Below are positions 5,670-59,687 of a stretch of 59,687 nt of DNA, piece after piece (positions within the stretch are counted from its first letter, which is position 1; each line of letters begins with the position of its first letter). The stretch is from a virus (taxonomy: Duplodnaviria > Caudoviricetes), in IMG/VR virus record IMGVR_UViG_3300037584_004428, positions 1 through 59,687 of that record; one strand, given 5' to 3'. The position numbers were made by a program, and so were the translations under genes. The notes under the pieces are model-generated. The model saw nothing but the letters and a program-made list of their open reading frames with translations, was not told where the DNA came from and did not search any database.

Positions 5670-8049
5670 CGTAGTAGAAACTAGCGCATCAACGATGAGC
5701 CATATTGTTGGTTATGATGGGGCGGATAATATACAGATCACACCTAACAATTTCTTTACAAGTTTTGTAACAGGTACAACAGGGCAAGTACCCTTTTTTG
5801 GTAGCACAACCTCATTACTTGGTGACGCTGGATTTAATTGGGACAACACAAACAAAAGATTAGGTATTGGAACGAGTAGTCCTAGTGCTAAATTAGAAAT
5901 AGCAGGAGGTGCTGATAGTATAGTATTAGTTACAGGAACTACAATCGCTTCAAGATTAGACATAAAAACAAATTCACATCATAGATTTTTACAAACAATA
6001 GAATCAGATGGTCGATTTAGATTATTTAATCAAGCTACAAATACAGAACAATTAAGCGTATTAAGCGGGGGTAACGTTGGTATCGGAACTACTAGCCCTG
6101 GGACAACCCTTGATGTTGCCGGGACACTAGCATCGTCAGGCATCACGCAGTTGGGAACAGGAGGGTCTAACGTTTTACTTACTTCTACAGGCGCAGGAAA
6201 TGTAGGTATTGGAAATAATAGCCCTAATAGAAAACTAACTGTTTCATCAAGTGGTGTTATTGCCGATTTCATTTCTTCATCAACATCCTCATATGTTGAT
6301 ATTGTAGGTTCAAGCGCACAATTAAGAGCTGGTGTTTTTGGAGGTGTTGTTGGATTTGCTAACGGAACTGGCACTACAGCTGAATTAGCAATAGATACAT
6401 CAGGAAATGTAGGTATTGGAACTAGTAGTCCTAGTTCTACTTTGACTTTAGGAAATGCCACAGACAACGTTGCTGAATTAAGAGTTTTAAGATCTAACGG
6501 TTCTTCTTCGACTTATGCCTCTGTTAACACGATTGGGGGGACAGGTCAATTTGGTTCAAGCGGATCAACAAGAGTCTACAGCACAGGAAACGAAAAATTA
6601 AACTTAAGAACTAATGGGTCAGATAGATTAACGATACTTTCCGGCGGTAACGTAGGTATAGGAACTACTTCGCCTACCGCTAGATTAAATGTTAAATCTA
6701 GTGGCTCAAATCTTGACGAAATATCTTTAACACATTCGGGTAACACAGTAAATATAGCTTCTCTTGGTCAAGAATCAGGACATGGAAGTTTAGTATTACG
6801 AAATAACAGTGGCGCAATACAAACTAGATTAAGTGCTGGTGGCAATAATTCTTATATTTTAAATTCTAATGTAGGTATTGGAACTAGTAGTCCTGTTACT
6901 AAATTACAAGTAGATAGCGCATCAGATTTTAGTGTTGCTTTATCTAAAAGAGGTTCAACATCTAGTGCTTTAAAATTTACTTTATCTAATCCTGCCACAA
7001 CAACTAATACTTGGAAAATAGAACATGATGCTAGCGAGAATTTAAAAATATTTGGTTATAGCGCAGATAATTTGCTTATTTCTACTAACTCTACTGAAAG
7101 AATGCGTATTACTAGTGCGGGCAACGTAGGTATTGGAACTACTAGTCCTGATCATAAGCTTGAGGTGCAAGGAGTAATATCAAGTGCAGACGCAGGTTTA
7201 CAAAAAGCAACTTTTGCAAATGTTGGTAATGATCTAGTTTTAACAGCAAATGCAGATCAAACAAATGTAACAGCTAAGATATTGTTTAATAGCTCCGGGT
7301 CAGGAGGTGGCGCTGTATCAACTAAAATGATCATTGATGGTGCTGGTAACGTAGGTATCGGGACTCCTAATCCTGCAGGTAAACTTCATGTAAAAGATGT
7401 TGGAGCCATATACACGTCTTTATCTGGTTCTGATTCGACTGTTAATTTTATTGAAAACGGTGGTAATCCATGGCGAATAGGAAACAGATCTTCTGATGAT
7501 AGTTTTAGATTTTCTCAAAGCTCTACTTCATTAGGTACTAACGTTAGGGTTACATTTGCTGACGGTGGCAACGTAGGTATTGGAACTTCTTCACCAAGTG
7601 TTAAAACTCATATACAAGGAGGAAATGCTGTAACAGGAGCATTTTATGATGGCTCAACAGTGTTAGCTGTGGAAGACACAAACCCATATATGCAAATAAT
7701 TGGGACTGATGGCGGCAATCAAGCATCATCACTTATTCTTACAACTGTTCCCGCAGCAGGAACAGGAAATAATAAACATTGGGCAGTTCAACATAGAGGT
7801 ACAACACAAAATGGTAATTTCGGTATTTCTTATGATACAACCTCTGCGTCAGGTCAAGATGGTGCTGATGGTACTGATTTATTTGTTATTAACACTACTG
7901 GTAACGTAGGTATCGGAACAACTAGCCCAACAGCTAAGTTAACAGTAGTAGGTTTAGCAGAACATGCAGATAACGCTGCGGCAATTAGTGCGGGATTAAC
8001 GACTGGTGCTTTTTACAGAACCGGTGATTTATTAAAGGTAGTACATTAA
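5647..8049 (+). CDS. Fibre protein A2 with GNVGIGTTSP repeats
   Basis: Shared N-terminus; many GNVGIGT.SP motifs; ends YRTGDLLKVVH like A1. Confidence 0.85.
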   Translation: MAIKFSQFVVETSASTMSHIVGYDGADNIQITPNNFFTSFVTGTTGQVPFFGSTTSLLGDAGFNWDNTNKRLGIGTSSPSAKLEIAGGADSIVLVTGTTIASRLDIKTNSHHRFLQTIESDGRFRLFNQATNTEQLSVLSGGNVGIGTTSPGTTLDVAGTLASSGITQLGTGGSNVLLTSTGAGNVGIGNNSPNRKLTVSSSGVIADFISSSTSSYVDIVGSSAQLRAGVFGGVVGFANGTGTTAELAIDTSGNVGIGTSSPSSTLTLGNATDNVAELRVLRSNGSSSTYASVNTIGGTGQFGSSGSTRVYSTGNEKLNLRTNGSDRLTILSGGNVGIGTTSPTARLNVKSSGSNLDEISLTHSGNTVNIASLGQESGHGSLVLRNNSGAIQTRLSAGGNNSYILNSNVGIGTSSPVTKLQVDSASDFSVALSKRGSTSSALKFTLSNPATTTNTWKIEHDASENLKIFGYSADNLLISTNSTERMRITSAGNVGIGTTSPDHKLEVQGVISSADAGLQKATFANVGNDLVLTANADQTNVTAKILFNSSGSGGGAVSTKMIIDGAGNVGIGTPNPAGKLHVKDVGAIYTSLSGSDSTVNFIENGGNPWRIGNRSSDDSFRFSQSSTSLGTNVRVTFADGGNVGIGTSSPSVKTHIQGGNAVTGAFYDGSTVLAVEDTNPYMQIIGTDGGNQASSLILTTVPAAGTGNNKHWAVQHRGTTQNGNFGISYDTTSASGQDGADGTDLFVINTTGNVGIGTTSPTAKLTVVGLAEHADNAAAISAGLTTGAFYRTGDLLKVVH

Positions 8050-27758: not shown

Positions 27759-28928
27759 ATGGAAATAAAAGTAAGAGATTTAGGTGAAATAGAATCTAAG
27801 TCAACACAAGAAATCGAAAAACAACTATTGGAGAAACACGAAGCTCAACAAGAGTCGATGGATAATCCAAAGCCACAAGACGAGGTTCAACGAGTAAACC
27901 TCCAAGAGACTCCAAAGGAAACTCCCAAGGAAGAAAAAGTGGTTGAAGAAAAAATTGAAGAACCTGTTGTAGAAGCACCTAGTGAGCCTACACCAGAGAT
28001 GTCTGAAAATGACGTTCTTTCATATATTGCAAACAAGTATGGCGAAGAAGTAAGTTCGCTAGACGACTTCATTGTAAAGCGAAGTTCATCTGAAGAATTA
28101 CCGGAGGATGTAAAAGCTTACTTTGATTATAAAAAAGAAACAGGAAGAGGAATAGATGATTTTGTTAGATTACAACAAGATTATGATTCAATGAATCCTG
28201 ATTCTTTGATTGCTAATTATTATTCTGCAACAGAAGAAGGATTAGATTCAGAGGATATTAAATATCTAATGGATGATAAATTTGGATTTGATGAAGAATT
28301 AGATGATGAAAAAGAAAAAAAGAAAAAACAATTAGCAAAAAAAAGAGAGCTATCTAAAGCTAAGAAATACTTTAAAGAGCAAAAAGAAAAATACAAACTA
28401 CCTCTTGAGTCAAGAGAAGTTGTTTCTGAAAGCAATAAAAAGGAAGTCGAAGCTTATAGAAAGTACATAGAGGAAAATGCTGCGTATGAAAAAGATGCAG
28501 CGCAGAAGCTACAGTGGTTCAAAGAAGAAACTAATAAAGTCTTTAATAAAGATTTCAAAGGTTTTGAGTTTGTTATTAACGAAAAGAAAATTTCTTATTT
28601 ACCTGGGTCTGTAGAGGAGGTTAAAAATAGTCAATCAAGTATCGAAAATTTTATTGGAAGATATGTTGACGATAAAGGATTGGTTAAAAACACCTCGCAG
28701 TATCATAGGGCTTTATCTATGGCAATGAATCCGGACAAGTACGCCAAGTTCTTTTACGAGCAAGGCAAGGCGGATGCAGTAGACAGTATATCTAAAAAAA
28801 CAAAAAATATAAATATGGATGTAAGGTCTGCTCCACAAGTCACATCAAAATCTGGATTTAAAGTAAGATCATTAAATCAAGACTCAGGTCGAGGTTTGAA
28901 GATCAGGAGTATAAAAAAAAGTAATTAA
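27759..28928 (+). CDS. Putative capsid scaffolding protein
   Basis: Acidic, helical 389 aa immediately upstream of the major capsid gene. Confidence 0.65.
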   Translation: MEIKVRDLGEIESKSTQEIEKQLLEKHEAQQESMDNPKPQDEVQRVNLQETPKETPKEEKVVEEKIEEPVVEAPSEPTPEMSENDVLSYIANKYGEEVSSLDDFIVKRSSSEELPEDVKAYFDYKKETGRGIDDFVRLQQDYDSMNPDSLIANYYSATEEGLDSEDIKYLMDDKFGFDEELDDEKEKKKKQLAKKRELSKAKKYFKEQKEKYKLPLESREVVSESNKKEVEAYRKYIEENAAYEKDAAQKLQWFKEETNKVFNKDFKGFEFVINEKKISYLPGSVEEVKNSQSSIENFIGRYVDDKGLVKNTSQYHRALSMAMNPDKYAKFFYEQGKADAVDSISKKTKNINMDVRSAPQVTSKSGFKVRSLNQDSGRGLKIRSIKKSN

Positions 28929-28951
28929 TAACAATTTAAAAATTAAAAATT

Positions 28952-30382
28952 ATGGCTGGTTCAGTTAAAGCTACTCCTACTTTTGCATTACAACCTAGTG
29001 CAGAAAGAGTAGCCGTACAATCAAACTATATAACTAACTTTAACTTCTTAAATCAGTATCTACCGGATACTTATGAAAAGGAGTTTGAGAGATACGGGAA
29101 TAGAACAGTGGCATCATTCTTAAGAATGGTAGGCGCTGAAATGCCTTCTAACTCTGACCTTATCAAATGGGCGGAGCAAGGAAGATTACACACTAAATAC
29201 ACTAACGTTACTTCAGGTGCGGCAGCAGCTCAAGACGTAGCTACATTAACAGTTAATGACGCACTTGTACCAGGTACAGGCGGAATTGCTATTAGAGTAG
29301 GTCAAACATTTATGTTATCTGACAGTTCAATTGGTTCTACTAACAGCAACAAAGGTATCGTTACTGCAGTAAACTATGGTGCAGGTACTATTGATGTTGC
29401 ATACTATGAAGCAGGTGGTCAGACAATGGCTGCAGGTGTACAGTGTTCATTATTTATCTATGGTTCTGAATTCCAAAAAGGTTCAGTTGCTATGGCTAAT
29501 TCATTAGAGGCTGATGACGTGATCTTCAGCAATAGCCCAATTATCATTAAAGATCTTTACGAAGTATCTGGTTCTGATATGGCGCAAATCGGATGGATTG
29601 AAGTAACTACTGAAAATGGAGCTACAGGATACCTATGGTATTTAAAATCAGAGCATGAAACAAGACTAAGATTTGAAGATTACCTAGAGACAGCAATGGT
29701 GGAAGCAGTTCCAGCAGAAGCAGGTTCTGGTGTGGCAGCTATCGCGGCTGGTGTAGCATCAGGTACAGGTAACAAAGGATCTGAAGGATTATTTTATGTA
29801 TTAGGTCAAAGAGGAAATGTATGGGGCGGTGGAATTCCAGCGGCTTTAGCAGACTTTGACGCTGTTATTCAGAGATTAGATAAGCAAGGTGCTATCGAAG
29901 AAAATGTATTATTCGTGAACAGAGAGTTTTCTTTTGACATTGATGATATGTTAGCTGCACAGAATTCATACGGTGCAGGTGGTAGTTCTTACGGATTATT
30001 TGATAATGACGAAGAAATGGCATTGAATTTAGGATTCTCTGGGTTCAGAAGAGGTTATGACTTCTACAAAACAGATTGGAAATACCTTAACGATCCTACT
30101 ATGAGAGGAGATATTGTTGGAGGAAAAATCAACGGTGTACTTGTACCTGCTGGTTCTACTTCAGTATATGATCAAATCTTAGGTAAGAACGCTAAGAGAC
30201 CATTCTTACACGTAAGATATAGAGCTTCTGAAACTGAAGATAGAAGATACAAAACATGGATTACTGGTTCTGCTGGTGGCGCTGCTACTTCAGGAACTGA
30301 CGTAATGCAGGTTAACTTCTTATCAGAAAGAGCGCTTTGTACTTTAGGTGCAAACAACTTCTTCTTATTCCAAAATGCATAA
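28952..30382 (+). CDS. Major capsid protein (crAss-like)
   Basis: 476 aa; QYLPD.YEKEFERYGNR, WAEQGRLH, GF..FRRGYDFYK, FLSERALCTLGANNF; followed by a hairpin. Confidence 0.85.
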   Translation: MAGSVKATPTFALQPSAERVAVQSNYITNFNFLNQYLPDTYEKEFERYGNRTVASFLRMVGAEMPSNSDLIKWAEQGRLHTKYTNVTSGAAAAQDVATLTVNDALVPGTGGIAIRVGQTFMLSDSSIGSTNSNKGIVTAVNYGAGTIDVAYYEAGGQTMAAGVQCSLFIYGSEFQKGSVAMANSLEADDVIFSNSPIIIKDLYEVSGSDMAQIGWIEVTTENGATGYLWYLKSEHETRLRFEDYLETAMVEAVPAEAGSGVAAIAAGVASGTGNKGSEGLFYVLGQRGNVWGGGIPAALADFDAVIQRLDKQGAIEENVLFVNREFSFDIDDMLAAQNSYGAGGSSYGLFDNDEEMALNLGFSGFRRGYDFYKTDWKYLNDPTMRGDIVGGKINGVLVPAGSTSVYDQILGKNAKRPFLHVRYRASETEDRRYKTWITGSAGGAATSGTDVMQVNFLSERALCTLGANNFFLFQNA

Positions 30383-54595: not shown

Positions 54596-54607
54596 TTGTT
54601 ATGATTT

Positions 54608-54675
54608 AATAAAAGGGATGCAAGTTAGTGTAACTTAATTGTGATGCATCACAGTTTCCTATTTCTTACATCCCT
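54608..54675 (-). other. Branched intergenic stem-loop followed by a U tract
   Basis: Outer stem 54614-54624 with 54665-54675; inner palindrome TGTGATGCATCACA; competing AAGTTA/TAACTT hairpin. Confidence 0.55.
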
Positions 54676-56525: not shown

Positions 56526-56925
56526 TATTAATTAATTTTTCTTTATAATTTTTAGCATGAAGAAACTTCTGCAATACTTTACTTCTCATTTCTTTTAATG
56601 CATTGAAATGTCTTGCGTTATTTCTTATGTTAATTTCTAGTTGAATTTTGTTTGTTATTCTTTGTAAACTATTTTGAAGGTTGTCAGTCATGACATTGTA
56701 AACTCCATACTCAAAGCCGTAGGTTTCAAACATTTCATATTGATCTTCAGTTATTTCCTGATAGAAATCTCCTTTCATCTTAGTATTAAATATTCTGTAC
56801 AACCCATCACACTTCATAATCTTTATACCTTTATATATATATGAGTCGCATTCTCTATCCATTACAGATGCAATGCCGTGTTGTCTACTTGCCTGTTCCC
56901 AAACCTCTTTCCTAGTCATTTGCAA
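56500..56925 (-). CDS. Hypothetical protein
   Basis: 141-aa ORF in operon context. Confidence 0.65.
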   Translation of the reverse strand: MQMTRKEVWEQASRQHGIASVMDRECDSYIYKGIKIMKCDGLYRIFNTKMKGDFYQEITEDQYEMFETYGFEYGVYNVMTDNLQNSLQRITNKIQLEINIRNNARHFNALKEMRSKVLQKFLHAKNYKEKLINNGKNEINV

Positions 56926-57205
56926 TGTTGTTTATTAATTCTTTCCAATCAGGATCCGTATTAATTAACTCCTCCATTTTTGCTTTACCTCTAGTGATCT
57001 GGCTATCATCTAAGTCTAGTCCGTATTCTCTACACCTATCCAAGATGAAATTGCCTCGCATATTTCTTTGCGAACACAGGTAAAATAATAAATCTCTGGC
57101 TTCAACATTCTCCCTCTTTCTTGTCTTAGTGAAAATGTCATCTTTAGAAATTTCAAGTGCGTCTTCCACTACTTCAACGTACTTGTCAAATATTTTTCTT
57201 TTCAT
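56912..57205 (-). CDS. DnaA domain IV-like HTH protein
   Basis: DIFTKTRKRENVEARDLLFYLC...DDSQITRG pattern. Confidence 0.65.
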   Translation of the reverse strand: MKRKIFDKYVEVVEDALEISKDDIFTKTRKRENVEARDLLFYLCSQRNMRGNFILDRCREYGLDLDDSQITRGKAKMEELINTDPDWKELINNIAND

Positions 57206-57262
57206 TTAATTAAATTTAATTCAAGCAAAATACAATTATTTTGCAACAAGACAAAATTTATA

Positions 57263-57406
57263 TTACATTAAATCTGCCTCAAAACATGCGTCAGAACAAT
57301 AACCTTTTCGTTCTATTGGTTTTTCACAATGCATACAGGTATGGTCTGGCTCATTCCAACCTCTTTGGTCATGTTCTTGCCAGACTAACCAATTATCGTA
57401 GTCCAT
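57263..57406 (-). CDS. Small zinc-finger protein (CxxC...CSxxC)
   Basis: Probable start MDYDNW; CMHCEKP...YCSDACFEAD. Confidence 0.65.
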   Translation of the reverse strand: MDYDNWLVWQEHDQRGWNEPDHTCMHCEKPIERKGYCSDACFEADLM

Positions 57407-57612
57407 AGTTGATATATAAAATAAATTAATACAATACTTATACTGCCTAGAAGACTTATTGCACAACCTGTCGTATCTTTCCCCCTTTCAATCTTTCTTT
57501 CTGTTTTTATTCGTATAGTTTTAAGATCACGAATAATTTGTTGCATCTTTTTTCTATCCCTAGTATCAATTAAGTCTAATGATTGTTGAAGAGTTTGAAT
57601 TATTTTTTTCAT
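57385..57612 (-). CDS. Hypothetical protein with C-terminal TM segment
   Basis: 75-aa ORF with a hydrophobic tail. Confidence 0.6.
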   Translation of the reverse strand: MKKIIQTLQQSLDLIDTRDRKKMQQIIRDLKTIRIKTERKIERGKDTTGCAISLLGSISIVLIYFIYQLWTTIIG

Positions 57613-57821
57613 AGCTCATCATCATTATCAAAGTTCTCCTCATATTCCTCATCTCCATCTGCATAACCGCATGCCTCTGCATCAACATTTCGGTTTACCT
57701 GAGCGACATATTGTCCATAAGTCCTGAACCAATCTAATTCGCTAGATAGTTTTTCGTTTTCCTCTTGCAATGCTTTAATCATTTGCATGTATTGTTGTAT
57801 TAAGTCTTCAGTTCCTGTCAT
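57609..57821 (-). CDS. Hypothetical acidic protein
   Basis: 70-aa ORF with A-rich leader. Confidence 0.65.
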   Translation of the reverse strand: MTGTEDLIQQYMQMIKALQEENEKLSSELDWFRTYGQYVAQVNRNVDAEACGYADGDEEYEENFDNDDEL

Positions 57822-57859
57822 AATTTTAAATTTATTTTTTTATTAATGTTACGTTAGTT

Positions 57860-57975
57860 TTAAGATACTCCCCCTCTACTATTATGATGAAAATTAACTA
57901 TTTATTATGAAAAGAGGGGGAAATATCAACTAACAATTAAACTAAACATATCATGAAAATCACAATAATTCTTTT
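57860..57975 (-). ncRNA. Candidate antisense sRNA or structured leader with three anti-AUG (UUUUCAU) motifs
   Basis: Downstream of a promoter; 9-bp GC clamp 57869-57877 with 57913-57921; + strand ATGAAAA at 57887, 57907 and 57953. Ends are approximate. Confidence 0.5.
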
Positions 57976-57981
57976 GAGTTA

Positions 57982-58012
57982 TAAATGTAATGTATTTGTA
58001 ACTTGTTTGCAA
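57982..58012 (-). promoter_or_regulatory. Bacteroidota-type promoter TTG-N20-TACATTTA
   Basis: Minus strand reads cTTGcaaacaagttacaaatacatTACATTTAt. Confidence 0.6.
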
Positions 58013-58019
58013 GTTTTTT

Positions 58020-58184
58020 TTAATAAATTTTATTTGTATGTATAATTTCTTCTATATGCCTGATTAATCTATCCAGACCATCAACAACACCTTTGTGCTG
58101 TGCAAAAGTATGGCTATCATTTACCCATTCTTTGTCTTCCTTAATATCTTTTGCGATATTTTTAATTTGTTCTAGTGTTATCAT
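58020..58184 (-). CDS. Hypothetical protein (54 aa, MITLEQIKNIAKDI...), not in ORF track
   Basis: Manually translated; leader aaataactATG is shared with the 58390 gene. Confidence 0.65.
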   Translation of the reverse strand: MITLEQIKNIAKDIKEDKEWVNDSHTFAQHKGVVDGLDRLIRHIEEIIHTNKIY

Positions 58185-58403: not shown

Positions 58404-58580
58404 TTAGTAATTATTTTTAATAAAGTTTATTATTTCTTTCAATGTTAAATTTTCGTATCCGTTGGCTTTAATATCCTCCATAACTTGCTGAGGATTTATA
58501 AAATATTCTGAACAGATTGAGTTTAATAATAATCTGTTTTGCCTTTTTTGATCTACTCCTAAAAATCTTCTAGTTCCCAT
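58404..58580 (-). CDS. Hypothetical early protein (probable start MGTRRF)
   Basis: Shortened from track ORF 58404-58649 to reduce the overlap. Confidence 0.55.
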   Translation of the reverse strand: MGTRRFLGVDQKRQNRLLLNSICSEYFINPQQVMEDIKANGYENLTLKEIINFIKNNY

Positions 58581-58785
58581 ATATAATTCTTTTAATGTCT
58601 TCTGATTTATAATTTCTTTGTTTAGGGTAATTGATATATCTGGTTTCAATGTCCCTAGCTTTTAATATTTCCTCATTCCATAACCTTTGATCTATTTTAT
58701 AATAAGTATAAAACACACCAGAAAAGAAACAGAATCCGCCCAACAAGGCACAGCATATTAAACGCTCTAATGTTTTAGTTTTCAT
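58570..58785 (-). CDS. Hypothetical early membrane protein
   Basis: N-terminal TM segment. Confidence 0.6.
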   Translation of the reverse strand: MKTKTLERLICCALLGGFCFFSGVFYTYYKIDQRLWNEEILKARDIETRYINYPKQRNYKSEDIKRIIYGN

Positions 58786-59030
58786 AGTTCTTCTTTATTG
58801 TCAATTTTATAAATTCCTTTATTATATATGAATAAAGCTTCTTTAATTGAATTTACAGGTGTTGTGTTTAGAATCTCACCTCCTACCTCAAATGTTATTT
58901 CATTTTTTGCGGTTAATACATATTTACCGAAATCATAATCCCAAACACCTTTATTGAATTGAATTTTACAATGCCCCTGTAATTCTAACTCCCCTTTGGT
59001 TTTTACTTTTTTTAATATGATTTTTTCCAT
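58782..59030 (-). CDS. Hypothetical early protein
   Basis: 82 aa; preceded by the 24-bp leader. Confidence 0.7.
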   Translation of the reverse strand: MEKIILKKVKTKGELELQGHCKIQFNKGVWDYDFGKYVLTAKNEITFEVGGEILNTTPVNSIKEALFIYNKGIYKIDNKEEL

Positions 59031-59051
59031 AATATTAATTTTAATTGTTAG
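59028..59051 (-). repeat. 24-bp leader CTAACAATTAAAATTAATATTATG (other copies 59251-59274 and 59502-59525)
   Basis: Three exact copies, each ending in a start codon. Confidence 0.95.
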
Positions 59052-59053
59052 TT

Positions 59054-59092
59054 AGTGTGGGCGGAATCGAACCGCCCTACAACCATTACACC
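59054..59092 (-). ncRNA. tRNA-elbow-like element A
   Basis: GGUGU-AAUGGUUGUA-GGGCGG-UUCGAUU-CCGCCC-ACACU. Confidence 0.7.
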
Positions 59093-59094
59093 TT

Positions 59095-59253
59095 TTAATA
59101 TCCGCTATAAAATCCGCCCTCAAAATCAAAATAGGTTGGGAGTTCTTTTTTCTCTAGCTTTGCAATCTTCTTTTTAAGTTTGGCTATTTTCTTTTTTCTA
59201 TTTTTTTCAATTCGATCTAAATACGCTAAATATCTTTTAAATTTATCATTCAT
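59095..59253 (-). CDS. Basic early protein (52 aa, MNDKFKRYLAYLDRIEK...), not in ORF track
   Basis: Starts at the second copy of the 24-bp leader. Confidence 0.7.
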   Translation of the reverse strand: MNDKFKRYLAYLDRIEKNRKKKIAKLKKKIAKLEKKELPTYFDFEGGFYSGY

Positions 59254-59270
59254 AATATTAATTTTAATTG

Positions 59271-59504
59271 TTAGTAATCTCCTTTTTTAATTTGTTCCGC
59301 TTTATATTGTGCCTCAAACAAAAGATCAACCAATTCGTCGAGGGCTTCAGTTTTAGAAGTATAATGACAGCCTTTGTCGCTATATTCCCAACCCTCCCAC
59401 TTATCGATTTGGTTATCTGTTTGTTCCTCTCTATCGTAAATCTCATCTTTGATTTTTTCAATGTGATTTTCCAATTGAGTTATAATTTTGGTTAATTGTG
59501 CCAT
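59271..59504 (-). CDS. Hypothetical early protein (probable start MAQLTK at 59504)
   Basis: The third copy of the 24-bp leader ends at this ATG. Confidence 0.75.
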   Translation of the reverse strand: MAQLTKIITQLENHIEKIKDEIYDREEQTDNQIDKWEGWEYSDKGCHYTSKTEALDELVDLLFEAQYKAEQIKKGDY

Positions 59505-59527
59505 AATATTAATTTTAATTGTTAGAT

Positions 59528-59567
59528 GATAAAGGGGGAATCGAACCCCCTCGAGAACCATTTTATC
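59528..59567 (-). ncRNA. tRNA-elbow-like element B
   Basis: GAUAAA-AUGGUUCUCGA-GGGGG-UUCGAUU-CCCCC-UUUAUC. Confidence 0.7.
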
Positions 59568-59683: not shown

Positions 59684-59687
59684 AATT

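Follow-up and report, generated by a model that had tools for sequence, protein, structure and literature searches.

We analyzed a 198-bp intergenic gap in the early region of a phage of the class Caudoviricetes represented by the IMG/VR virus record IMGVR_UViG_3300037584_004428; the window studied here is this entire record of 59,687 bp, with a completeness estimate of 98%. Structural genes occupy the + strand up to ~48.4 kb, and small early genes together with recombination and replication genes run on the minus strand from 59.7 to 48.4 kb, where a Sak-like annealing protein, an ExoVIII-like nuclease, and an 809-amino-acid (aa) primase-helicase are encoded. Matches of the primase (20 phage records) were solely Bacteroidota phages (Flavobacterium, Nonlabens, Polaribacter, Cellulophaga, Maribacter, and Bacteroides) or uncultured records, and the DNA sequencing runs containing the early region are marine metagenomes. 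By blastn, the early region gave no match to cultured phages. The two open reading frames (ORFs) that flank the gap belong to no known family, PHROGs returned nothing for the neighbours, and the neighbouring proteins are ORFans. ARAGORN reported no tRNA or tmRNA genes and Rfam no match at the gathering score; at E-values up to 10, Rfam listed solely 17-nt T-arm look-alikes outside the gap.

The gap contains the following features:

57822-58019: the gap, 198 bp, between the minus-strand ORFs 58020-58184 (54 aa) and 57609-57821 (70 aa)
57982-58012, minus strand: block A, promoter-like, with TTG at 58012-58010, a 20-nt spacer, and TACATTTA at 57989-57982; predicted transcription start at ~57975-57977
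57969-57981, minus strand: the 13-nt joint between blocks A and B, the position of the cargo in relatives; deletion joint at ~57974/57973
57926-57968, minus strand: block B, 43 nt, non-coding, with a 5' hairpin UAUUGUGA-UUU-UCAUGAUA (57967-57949) and a single-stranded stretch (57948-57928)
57941-57928, minus strand: the anti-leader UUUAAUUGUUAGUU, in the single-stranded stretch of block B
57927-57923 and 57868-57864, minus strand: the closing stem, GAUAU pairing with GUAUC, which surrounds a GC stem (57921-57913 with 57877-57869) and its loop (57912-57878)
57878-57912, + strand: the loop, in which the units ACTATTATGATGAAAA and ACTATTTATTATGAAAA stand in tandem; block B has a third such unit, ACTAAACATATCATGAAAA, at 57941-57959
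57822-57863, minus strand: the A-rich leader of the 70-aa ORF, starting with UUAAAACUAAC

An earlier note on this DNA had read the gap as the gene of a ~110-nt minus-strand antisense RNA with three UUUUCAU seeds, two of them in the loop of the GC stem, that would block the start codons of early genes. The landmarks that it described are all present: the GC stem has 9 bp (on the + strand, TCCCCCTCT at 57869-57877 pairs with AGAGGGGGA at 57913-57921) and a 35-nt loop, ATGAAAA occurs on the + strand at 57887, 57907, and 57953 (opening ORFs of 7-8, 8, and 30 aa), and the block at 57982-58012 is conserved on the minus strand with a promoter-like layout.

A collapsed promoter-cargo-boundary slot

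Relatives were found via the Sak-like protein (47 loci, five of which, L002 to L006, show DNA similarity in the early region) and by scanning metagenomes for the 21 nt at the centre of block B, which gave 24 stretches, 18 of them true block B and 6 of them chance matches (L088, L089, L098, L100, L106, and L107). Among viral contigs, a 17-mer of block B hit 28 stretches (4 true, all in contigs already known) and an 18-mer of block A hit 8 (3 true). Some of the metagenome contigs duplicate IMG/VR records, so that the rows of this comparison are not all independent.

Block A stands upstream of the full block B in 18 of the 22 rows, the remaining 4 having merely 27 to 402 nt of upstream DNA. In 17 contigs other than the window, cargo genes lie between the two blocks and the distance from A to B is 390 to 1176 nt; in the window alone it is 13 nt, with no ORF in between. 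The cargo of these 17 rows falls into 9 distinct ORF sets, which by protein length in aa are 120; 156; 154; 42-77-157-52-50; 43-89-154; 120-50; 56-81; 88-156; and 154-50. Throughout the relatives, the start codon of a gene follows block A after 15 to 25 nt, and block B always comes directly after a stop codon. Relative to the window, L002 has a leader and a 120-aa ORF with its stop codon cleanly inserted between CTCAA and AAGAATTATTG (joint CTCAA/AAGAA in the window); L002 moreover has a second 70-aa gene after the stem. Because the two blocks lie 13 nt apart without a gene solely in the window, the compact RNA gene of the earlier note is a product of cargo deletion: it exists here only through the missing cargo gene, and in relatives the same promoter-like block precedes protein-coding cargo.

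The empty form is found in natural DNA, since it is bridged unchanged by contigs from three runs of three studies (X3, 56900-58035; X4, 57852-58031; X8, 57518-58173). Another contig of X4 departs from this form at 57984, at the block A border. The exact 28-mer across the empty joint had no match among the viral contigs searched, a set outside which near-identical records may lie.

Cargo type, the type of insert within the closing stem (see below), and the downstream gene recombine independently around block B. For instance, L091 joins a cargo array that ends in a 50-aa gene, as in L005 with its type 4 insert, to the type 1 hairpin, and L104 joins the 3' end of the 156-aa gene, as judged from 27 nt of upstream DNA, to a type 4 insert. 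Blocks A and B each occur once per genome, and the hairpin-leader module described below is repeated two to three times forward and once inverted. Taken as an architectural result, the gap is firmly established as a collapsed promoter-cargo-boundary slot. It thus offers a sequence-defined example of the swapping of small ORFans in marine Flavobacteriia phages, with fixed borders, at least 9 cargo sets, and one natural empty state, and such slots mark entry and exit points of accessory genes in phage genomes.

A separate observation concerns L092, 24 nt upstream of block B. The last reading frame ahead of block B there is an 8-codon ORF (MKEIKILL) whose end matches that of the 50-aa cargo gene, and this suggests a second, nearly collapsed state that would have arisen by an internal deletion in the 50-aa cargo array.

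The two borders of the slot

In gene orientation, block A reads AACTTGCAAA-N6-ACAAATACATTACATTTA. Its four variants differ in the spacer only, with part of the sequence having been fixed by the search pattern. Relative to the predicted start, TTG lies at -36 to -33 and TAnnTTTA at -12 to -5. The Bacteroidetes promoter consensus, as given in PMC6847099, consists of TTTG at -33 and TAnnTTTG at -7, the last G of the -7 box being nearly invariant. Block A matches the spacing of that consensus, and the last G of its -7 box is an A in all copies, so that activity of block A as a promoter stays conditional. A consensus-type TTTG-N20-TAGTTTTG with the same geometry is found in relatives ahead of the first early gene. 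Block A is therefore best described as a putative host-type promoter of the Bacteroidetes sigma-A-like kind, as far as can be judged from its sequence.

The consensus-type promoter of the relatives follows a duplicated TTTGCAT just ahead of the first early leader (L002, ~1270-1320; L003, ~2120-2170; L087, ~75-125; reverse complement of L086, ~6720-6770). The window record ends at 59687 within the leader of its first early gene, so that its own copy is cut off. A scan for sigma-70-type promoters gave no signal (16 found, 17.6 expected), and a strict scan for TTG-N18-21-TAnnTTTG was uninformative, its 12 matches all lying away from the gap and mostly inside genes. We also considered block B itself as a promoter and dropped this idea as unlikely: its TAWGTTTA has a G where host promoters almost never do, and there is no TTG at -33.

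Block B reads TTATTGTGATTTTCATGATAWGTTTAGTTTAATTGTTARTTGA and is followed by a stem structure and then, in relatives, by a UUAAAAC-type leader. It is invariant in 13 distinct aligned sequences save for one A/T position (W), one G/A position (R), and one 5-nt duplication (in two sequences); only its central 21 nt were fixed by the search, and the flanks on both sides differ among the 13. Coding DNA next to it is merely 74-80% identical between the same phages, and the 43 nt of block B are more conserved than any neighbouring gene. Such invariance must reflect some sequence-specific function.

Downstream of block B, the closing stem holds one of four types of insert:

Type 1: CCCCCUCU, a 35-nt loop, and AGAGGGGG (window, L002, L091, L094, L099, L102, L109)
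Type 2: CCCCUC-GAAA-GAGGGG with a UUGUCUU tail
Type 3: CCCCC...GGGGG, a stem that encloses a loop of 17 nt
Type 4: a long, AT-richer insert

The inner CCCCUC/GAGGGG stem of the window is common to types 2 and 3. All four types are enclosed by the 5-bp closing stem, which takes the forms GAUAU/GUAUC, GAUAG/UUGUC, GAUAA/UUAUA, and GAGAU/AUCUC, and the UUAAAAC anchor follows it in 12 of the 13 sequences (L094 has UUAUGAC; L002 reads UUAAAGC). In the alignment of 13, 96.9% of the cells of the closing stem are paired and two of its five pairs have changed on both sides. Its covariation score of 0.182 compares with 0.053 in shuffles and was reached by none of 500, though the stem was derived from the same sequences and the four insert types amount to few independent events. 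Its G-U pairs exist on the minus (gene) strand only and are mismatches on the + strand, which bears out the minus strand as the relevant one. The earlier note had proposed a search of relatives for covariation of the clamp with retained UUUUCAU. The closing stem does covary, and the two UUUUCAU of the loop are confined to type 1.

Predicted folds of types 1 to 3 are alike, with a 5' hairpin, 16-21 nt of single strand that include the anti-leader, and a 3' stem (z-scores of -2.5, -5.6, -4.4, and -5.4); the type 4 fold has a z-score of -0.35. The 5' hairpin is invariant and therefore uninformative with respect to covariation. An outer helix of the window fold, GUUAGUU/AACUAAC, was dropped as it is absent from type 2 relatives.

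Could the stem end a discrete transcript? A terminator scan did not list the window hairpin, which departs from an intrinsic terminator in its 35-nt loop (instead of ~3-8 nt) and in its tail AGUAUCUU, with 4 U in the next 8 nt. By inspection, the type 2 stem (6-7 bp of GC, GAAA loop, UUGUCUU tail) would fit an intrinsic terminator. Only ~45 nt in the window, or ~20 nt in type 2 relatives, separate the stem from the next ATG, so that the downstream genes need read-through, and no other recognisable promoter was found near these essential genes. Given the large loop, the weak U tail, the missing terminator call, the short distance to the ATG, and the lack of another promoter nearby, read-through is the simpler expectation. 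The hairpin would be a poor terminator in this phage, and transcription that runs on into the 70-aa gene is no less likely than the discrete 110-nt RNA of the earlier note.

Block B as an inverted leader module

The immediate-early genes of the window share a module of hairpin, leader, and start codon, with these forward copies:

59028-59076, minus strand: hairpin GGGCGGUUCGAUUCCGCCC, leader ACUAACUAACAAUUAAAAUUAAUAUU, AUG at 59030
59502-59550, minus strand: a further copy
59251-59275, minus strand: a further copy, without the hairpin

In order, the forward module consists of a short stem (GATAAA...TTTATC or GGTGT...ACACT), a T-arm-like GC hairpin (GGGGGTTCGATTCCCCC or GGGCGGTTCGATTCCGCCC), TATCA(T/A)CTAACAATTAAA, and an ATG ~10 nt further on; the window and its relatives have two to three copies of it within the opening 650 nt of the early region. 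On the + strand, the gap repeats this order with GATAC, a GC hairpin, TATCAACTAACAATTAAACTAAACATATC, and ATG. The stretch 57928-57941 is, as the earlier note had stated, a perfect 14-nt inverted copy of 59040-59053; with the copy at 59506-59531 the longer match covers 26 nt, 22 of them identical. Local alignment of the gap with the three leader modules scored 16.0, which 3 of 2000 dinucleotide shuffles reach. Among 595 genomic tiles one other ties this score (at 28.8-29.0 kb, where the + strand gene at 28952 has its leader), and the match is therefore borderline within this genome alone. It becomes convincing because L002 (score 18.5) and L003 (17.5) have the inverted module too, in both cases directly beside a GC hairpin. 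Block B is thus an inverted copy of the hairpin-leader-ATG module.

The tying site at 28925-28954 (+ strand) is the leader of a 476-aa late gene (ATG at 28952) and the sole other match in the genome as good as the gap. Use of the leader motif therefore extends beyond the early genes, and TAACAATT-AAAATT...ATG is a generally good leader.

Two more partial copies of the ATG-proximal unit, arranged in tandem, lie in the 35-nt loop and are confined to the type 1 lineage. Together, the inverted module in block B and these two partial copies explain the three start-site look-alikes on the + strand. ATGAAAA occurs 26 times on the + strand and 14 times on the minus strand of the genome, and the gap is the only site with three within 80 nt. 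The extended unit ACTA-N4-10-ATGAAAA occurs four times on both strands together, three of them in the gap, so that the three ATGAAAA are copies of one repeated unit and not three independent signals. In the DNA compared, we found no other source of the 35-nt loop, and the exact 24-nt leader had no match in viral contigs.

GC-rich hairpins are scarce in this part of the genome, the 11.3-kb early region of the window having three, all of them intergenic and each followed by a CTAAC-type leader. Hairpins identical to the T-arm of tRNA or tmRNA (GGGGGUUCGAUUCCCCC, GGGCGGUUCGAUUCCGCCC) lie between immediate-early genes ahead of the shared leader (window, 59534-59550 and 59060-59076, minus strand; L003, 2823-2841; L087, 1152-1170 and 2157-2175; reverse complement of L086, 7955-7973) and are enclosed by a short covarying stem (GAUAAA/UUUAUC or GGUGU/ACACU) with a conserved AAUGGUU bulge. 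ARAGORN called no tRNA at these hairpins and Rfam matched the 17-nt T-arm only (13.9 bits). One possible role is to punctuate the early transcript as signals for processing or stability.

Possible roles of the gap and its known counterparts

The account that we favor, and rate slightly on the probable side, is that the gap is a structured 5' untranslated region (UTR) left by cargo deletion and that its borders double as exchange linkers. In this view the gap is the emptied form of a slot for variable gene cassettes, set in the hyperplastic early region of a phage of the marine Flavobacteriia type. Its borders are block A, a putative host-type promoter, and block B plus closing stem, a structured RNA element on the minus strand, and between them relatives carry one to five or more small ORFan genes. 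A microhomology deletion would have removed the cargo, and the promoter would now fire almost straight into block B. Transcription would most likely read through the large-loop hairpin into the 70-aa gene and on into the recombination and replication genes. Block B and its stem may further have an attenuator, stability, or processing role, and the borders would serve as homologous linkers for cargo swapping.

On this account the slot would work most like the PeSL cassettes of T4-type phages, without being a member of that family. PeSLs are cassettes of a promoter and a stem-loop that flank ORFan indels, their crossovers can lie in the loop, and in one relative T4-type PeSLs are reduced to a collapsed single element (PMC2839356 and PMC4122927). 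Shared with them are the short conserved intergenic blocks that would combine a host-type early promoter with a GC stem-loop among small ORFans, the insertions, deletions, and replacements of ORFs flanked by these borders in close relatives (the 9 cargo sets and the empty form), the collapsed ORF-less form of one relative, and the loop as a site of rearrangement. Unlike in PeSLs, the promoter would stand at the 5' border and the stem at the 3' border instead of both making up one composite, the stem adjoins the promoter in the window only, the promoter would be of the Bacteroidetes -33/-7 type and not sigma-70, and the 3' border has an invariant 43-nt inverted leader, a feature not mentioned in the passages on PeSLs consulted here. 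Lambdoid morons (promoter, gene, and terminator) are likewise self-contained expression units between operon genes that are present or absent among relatives. However, the slot has conserved flanks with exchanged cargo, whereas morons are independent of conserved flanks in the part of PMC2839356 that treats them, and a terminator function is putative here.

Several observations weigh against this account. A linker role alone does not explain 43 invariant nt beside coding DNA of 74-80% identity, and the -7 box of block A has its A at the nearly invariant G of the host consensus. The core of block B is significantly complementary to early leaders, and the whole element is laid out like a base-pairing small RNA, with a hairpin at the 5' end, a conserved core left single-stranded, and a GC stem at the 3' end. 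The entire gap folds somewhat better as a + strand RNA (-40.5 kcal/mol, z-score -3.9) than as a minus-strand RNA (-34.2 kcal/mol, z-score -2.75), which is due to the two loop units pairing with each other via G-U pairs that exist on the + strand only. Finally, unlike those of PeSLs, the two borders differ in sequence and are each single-copy per genome, and the order is promoter, cargo, element, and stem instead of stem-loop followed by promoter.

The complementarity leads to an alternative that we regard as possible but doubtful, namely that block B is a same-strand anti-leader RNA whose core UUUAAUUGUUAG pairs with the AACAAUUAAA leaders 9-26 nt upstream of the AUG. The RNA might come from the 3' end of the cargo transcript, directly from block A in the window, or from within a long early transcript, and its pairing would stop immediate-early translation once the second promoter fires. 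Its target region is where ribosomes of Bacteroidota, which do without Shine-Dalgarno (SD) sequences, would need unpaired A-rich RNA, and A-rich positions -11 to -14 favor initiation in Flavobacterium according to PMC6847099. Tentatively, block B would then sit at the border of immediate-early and delayed-early genes as a silencer of the shared leader, standing alone in this phage and forming the 3' end of cargo transcripts elsewhere.

The best duplexes of block B in the window are indeed those with three leader-bearing early genes, at -28.0, -27.8, and -22.6 kcal/mol; of 250 dinucleotide shuffles, one reaches the best value and none the third-best value or the mean over 69 start regions. When the cost of unfolding is included, the same genes rank first to third of 69 (-21.3, -20.2, and -17.7 kcal/mol; median -7.1). 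The core lies in the predicted single strand between two hairpins in types 1 to 3 and is invariant next to stems that vary, as is typical of base-pairing RNAs. Upstream of block B, AACAATTAAA leaders are present in all five phages examined, where sites of at least 10 nt complementary to block B number 6, 4, 8, 8, and 8 compared with 0-4 in controls, and the top-ranked partners in L003 and G003 are again early genes upstream of block B, at modest energies.

This complementarity would, however, be automatic if block B is an inverted duplicate of the leader module. The pairing shrinks to contiguous stretches of 10-13 nt in type 2 and type 4 phages, stays barely above background in L003 (-14.5 compared with a 5th percentile of -11.5), and has top partners other than early leaders in G004. 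Compensatory change between core and leader is not visible because both motifs are invariant, and the single variable position (C/T before TAAC) has no consistent pairing. The 5' half of block B, just as invariant, lacks a target; across 48 early regions, 12-mers of inverted start-region sequence show no enrichment (78 sites, 73 in the control); and the window stem with its 35-nt loop is followed by merely 4 U in 8 nt.

Of the antisense complementarity beyond AT-matched chance that the earlier note had expected, the part that stands is thus the pairing of the conserved block B with early leaders. Its idea of multiple seeds is not supported. Both UUUUCAU motifs of the loop are confined to insert type 1; in the other types their place is taken by a tetraloop (GAAA), by a loop of 17 nt, or by a long insert of unrelated sequence. 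Pairing of the loop with start regions is at chance level, with 83, 30, and 185 of 250 shuffles doing as well, and the third CAU sits within the predicted 5' hairpin. ATGAAAA opens just 5 of the 69 crude gene calls.

Base-pairing small RNAs that bacteria derive from 3' UTRs typically have a conserved single-stranded core with a GC stem after it. Block B would resemble these in having both at the end of a coding transcript, and would differ from them in the weak U tail of the window phage and in the large inserts in the stem. The C4 RNA of P1 and the CI RNA of P4 are short structured same-strand RNAs that pair near the starts of their targets via inverted repeats. If block B does act as an anti-leader, it would share with C4 of P1/P7 and CI of P4 the pairing of a structured same-strand RNA near start sites, though in an SD-less host and with several immediate-early genes sharing one leader as targets. 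The C4 RNA of P1/P7 and the CI RNA of P4 have been named as RNase P substrates. A true anti-leader RNA would be a new mode of timing early expression in a phylum that chooses its starts by unpaired A-rich leaders, and an RNA-based counterpart of systems that shut off early mRNA; if this reading is false, the region is an ordinary structured 5' UTR remaining after deletion.

An improbable alternative is that block B is a protein recognition site on DNA or nascent RNA and that its likeness to the leader is historical. It might be an operator on the imperfect palindrome TTATTGTGA-N3-TCATGATAA, or a nut/put-like antitermination site before the delayed-early replication genes. Such a site would account for the invariance of both halves of block B, including the one without leader complementarity, the 5' half being a 9+9 imperfect palindrome, and for its fixed place between early ORFans and recombination and replication genes ahead of a terminator-like stem. 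Yet none of the small early proteins could be recognised as binding DNA or RNA, their Pfam matches all being below cut-off (with nothing from PHROGs for the neighbours), the palindrome has no second copy in the genome, and the G-U pairs of the 5' hairpin favor RNA over a DNA operator.

Transcription of the + strand, with the look-alikes as genuine start sites of micro-ORFs (MMKINYLL, MKRGGNIN, MKITII...), is very unlikely: all three have good A-rich leaders and AAA as second codon and the gap folds slightly better on that strand, but inspection shows no -7 box of the Bacteroidetes type upstream of them on that strand (the strict scan has none here), the ORF at 57953 has 30 aa in the window, 8 in L002, 13 in L003, and 7 in L005 with MKITII alone kept, the first two ORFs occur in insert type 1 only, and the covariation of the stem uses G-U pairs that are mismatches on the + strand.

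Some observations on the wider early region remain. Contigs of one oligo-dT RNA run span 58411-58671 only within this region. In run X4, one contig skips 301 nt (window 58786-59088, with the 82-aa gene 58782-59030 and a hairpin-leader module) and another skips 127 nt (window 58052-58180), so that further small early genes are also present or absent in natural populations. The primase-helicase ORF of the window starts with TTG within a conserved ATAACAATTG...ATAACAAT motif (54596-54640, minus strand), as it does in L003 (7849-7900), and in L003 and L005 a terminator-like GC hairpin lies ahead of it. The TAACAAT core at this start is that of the early leaders.

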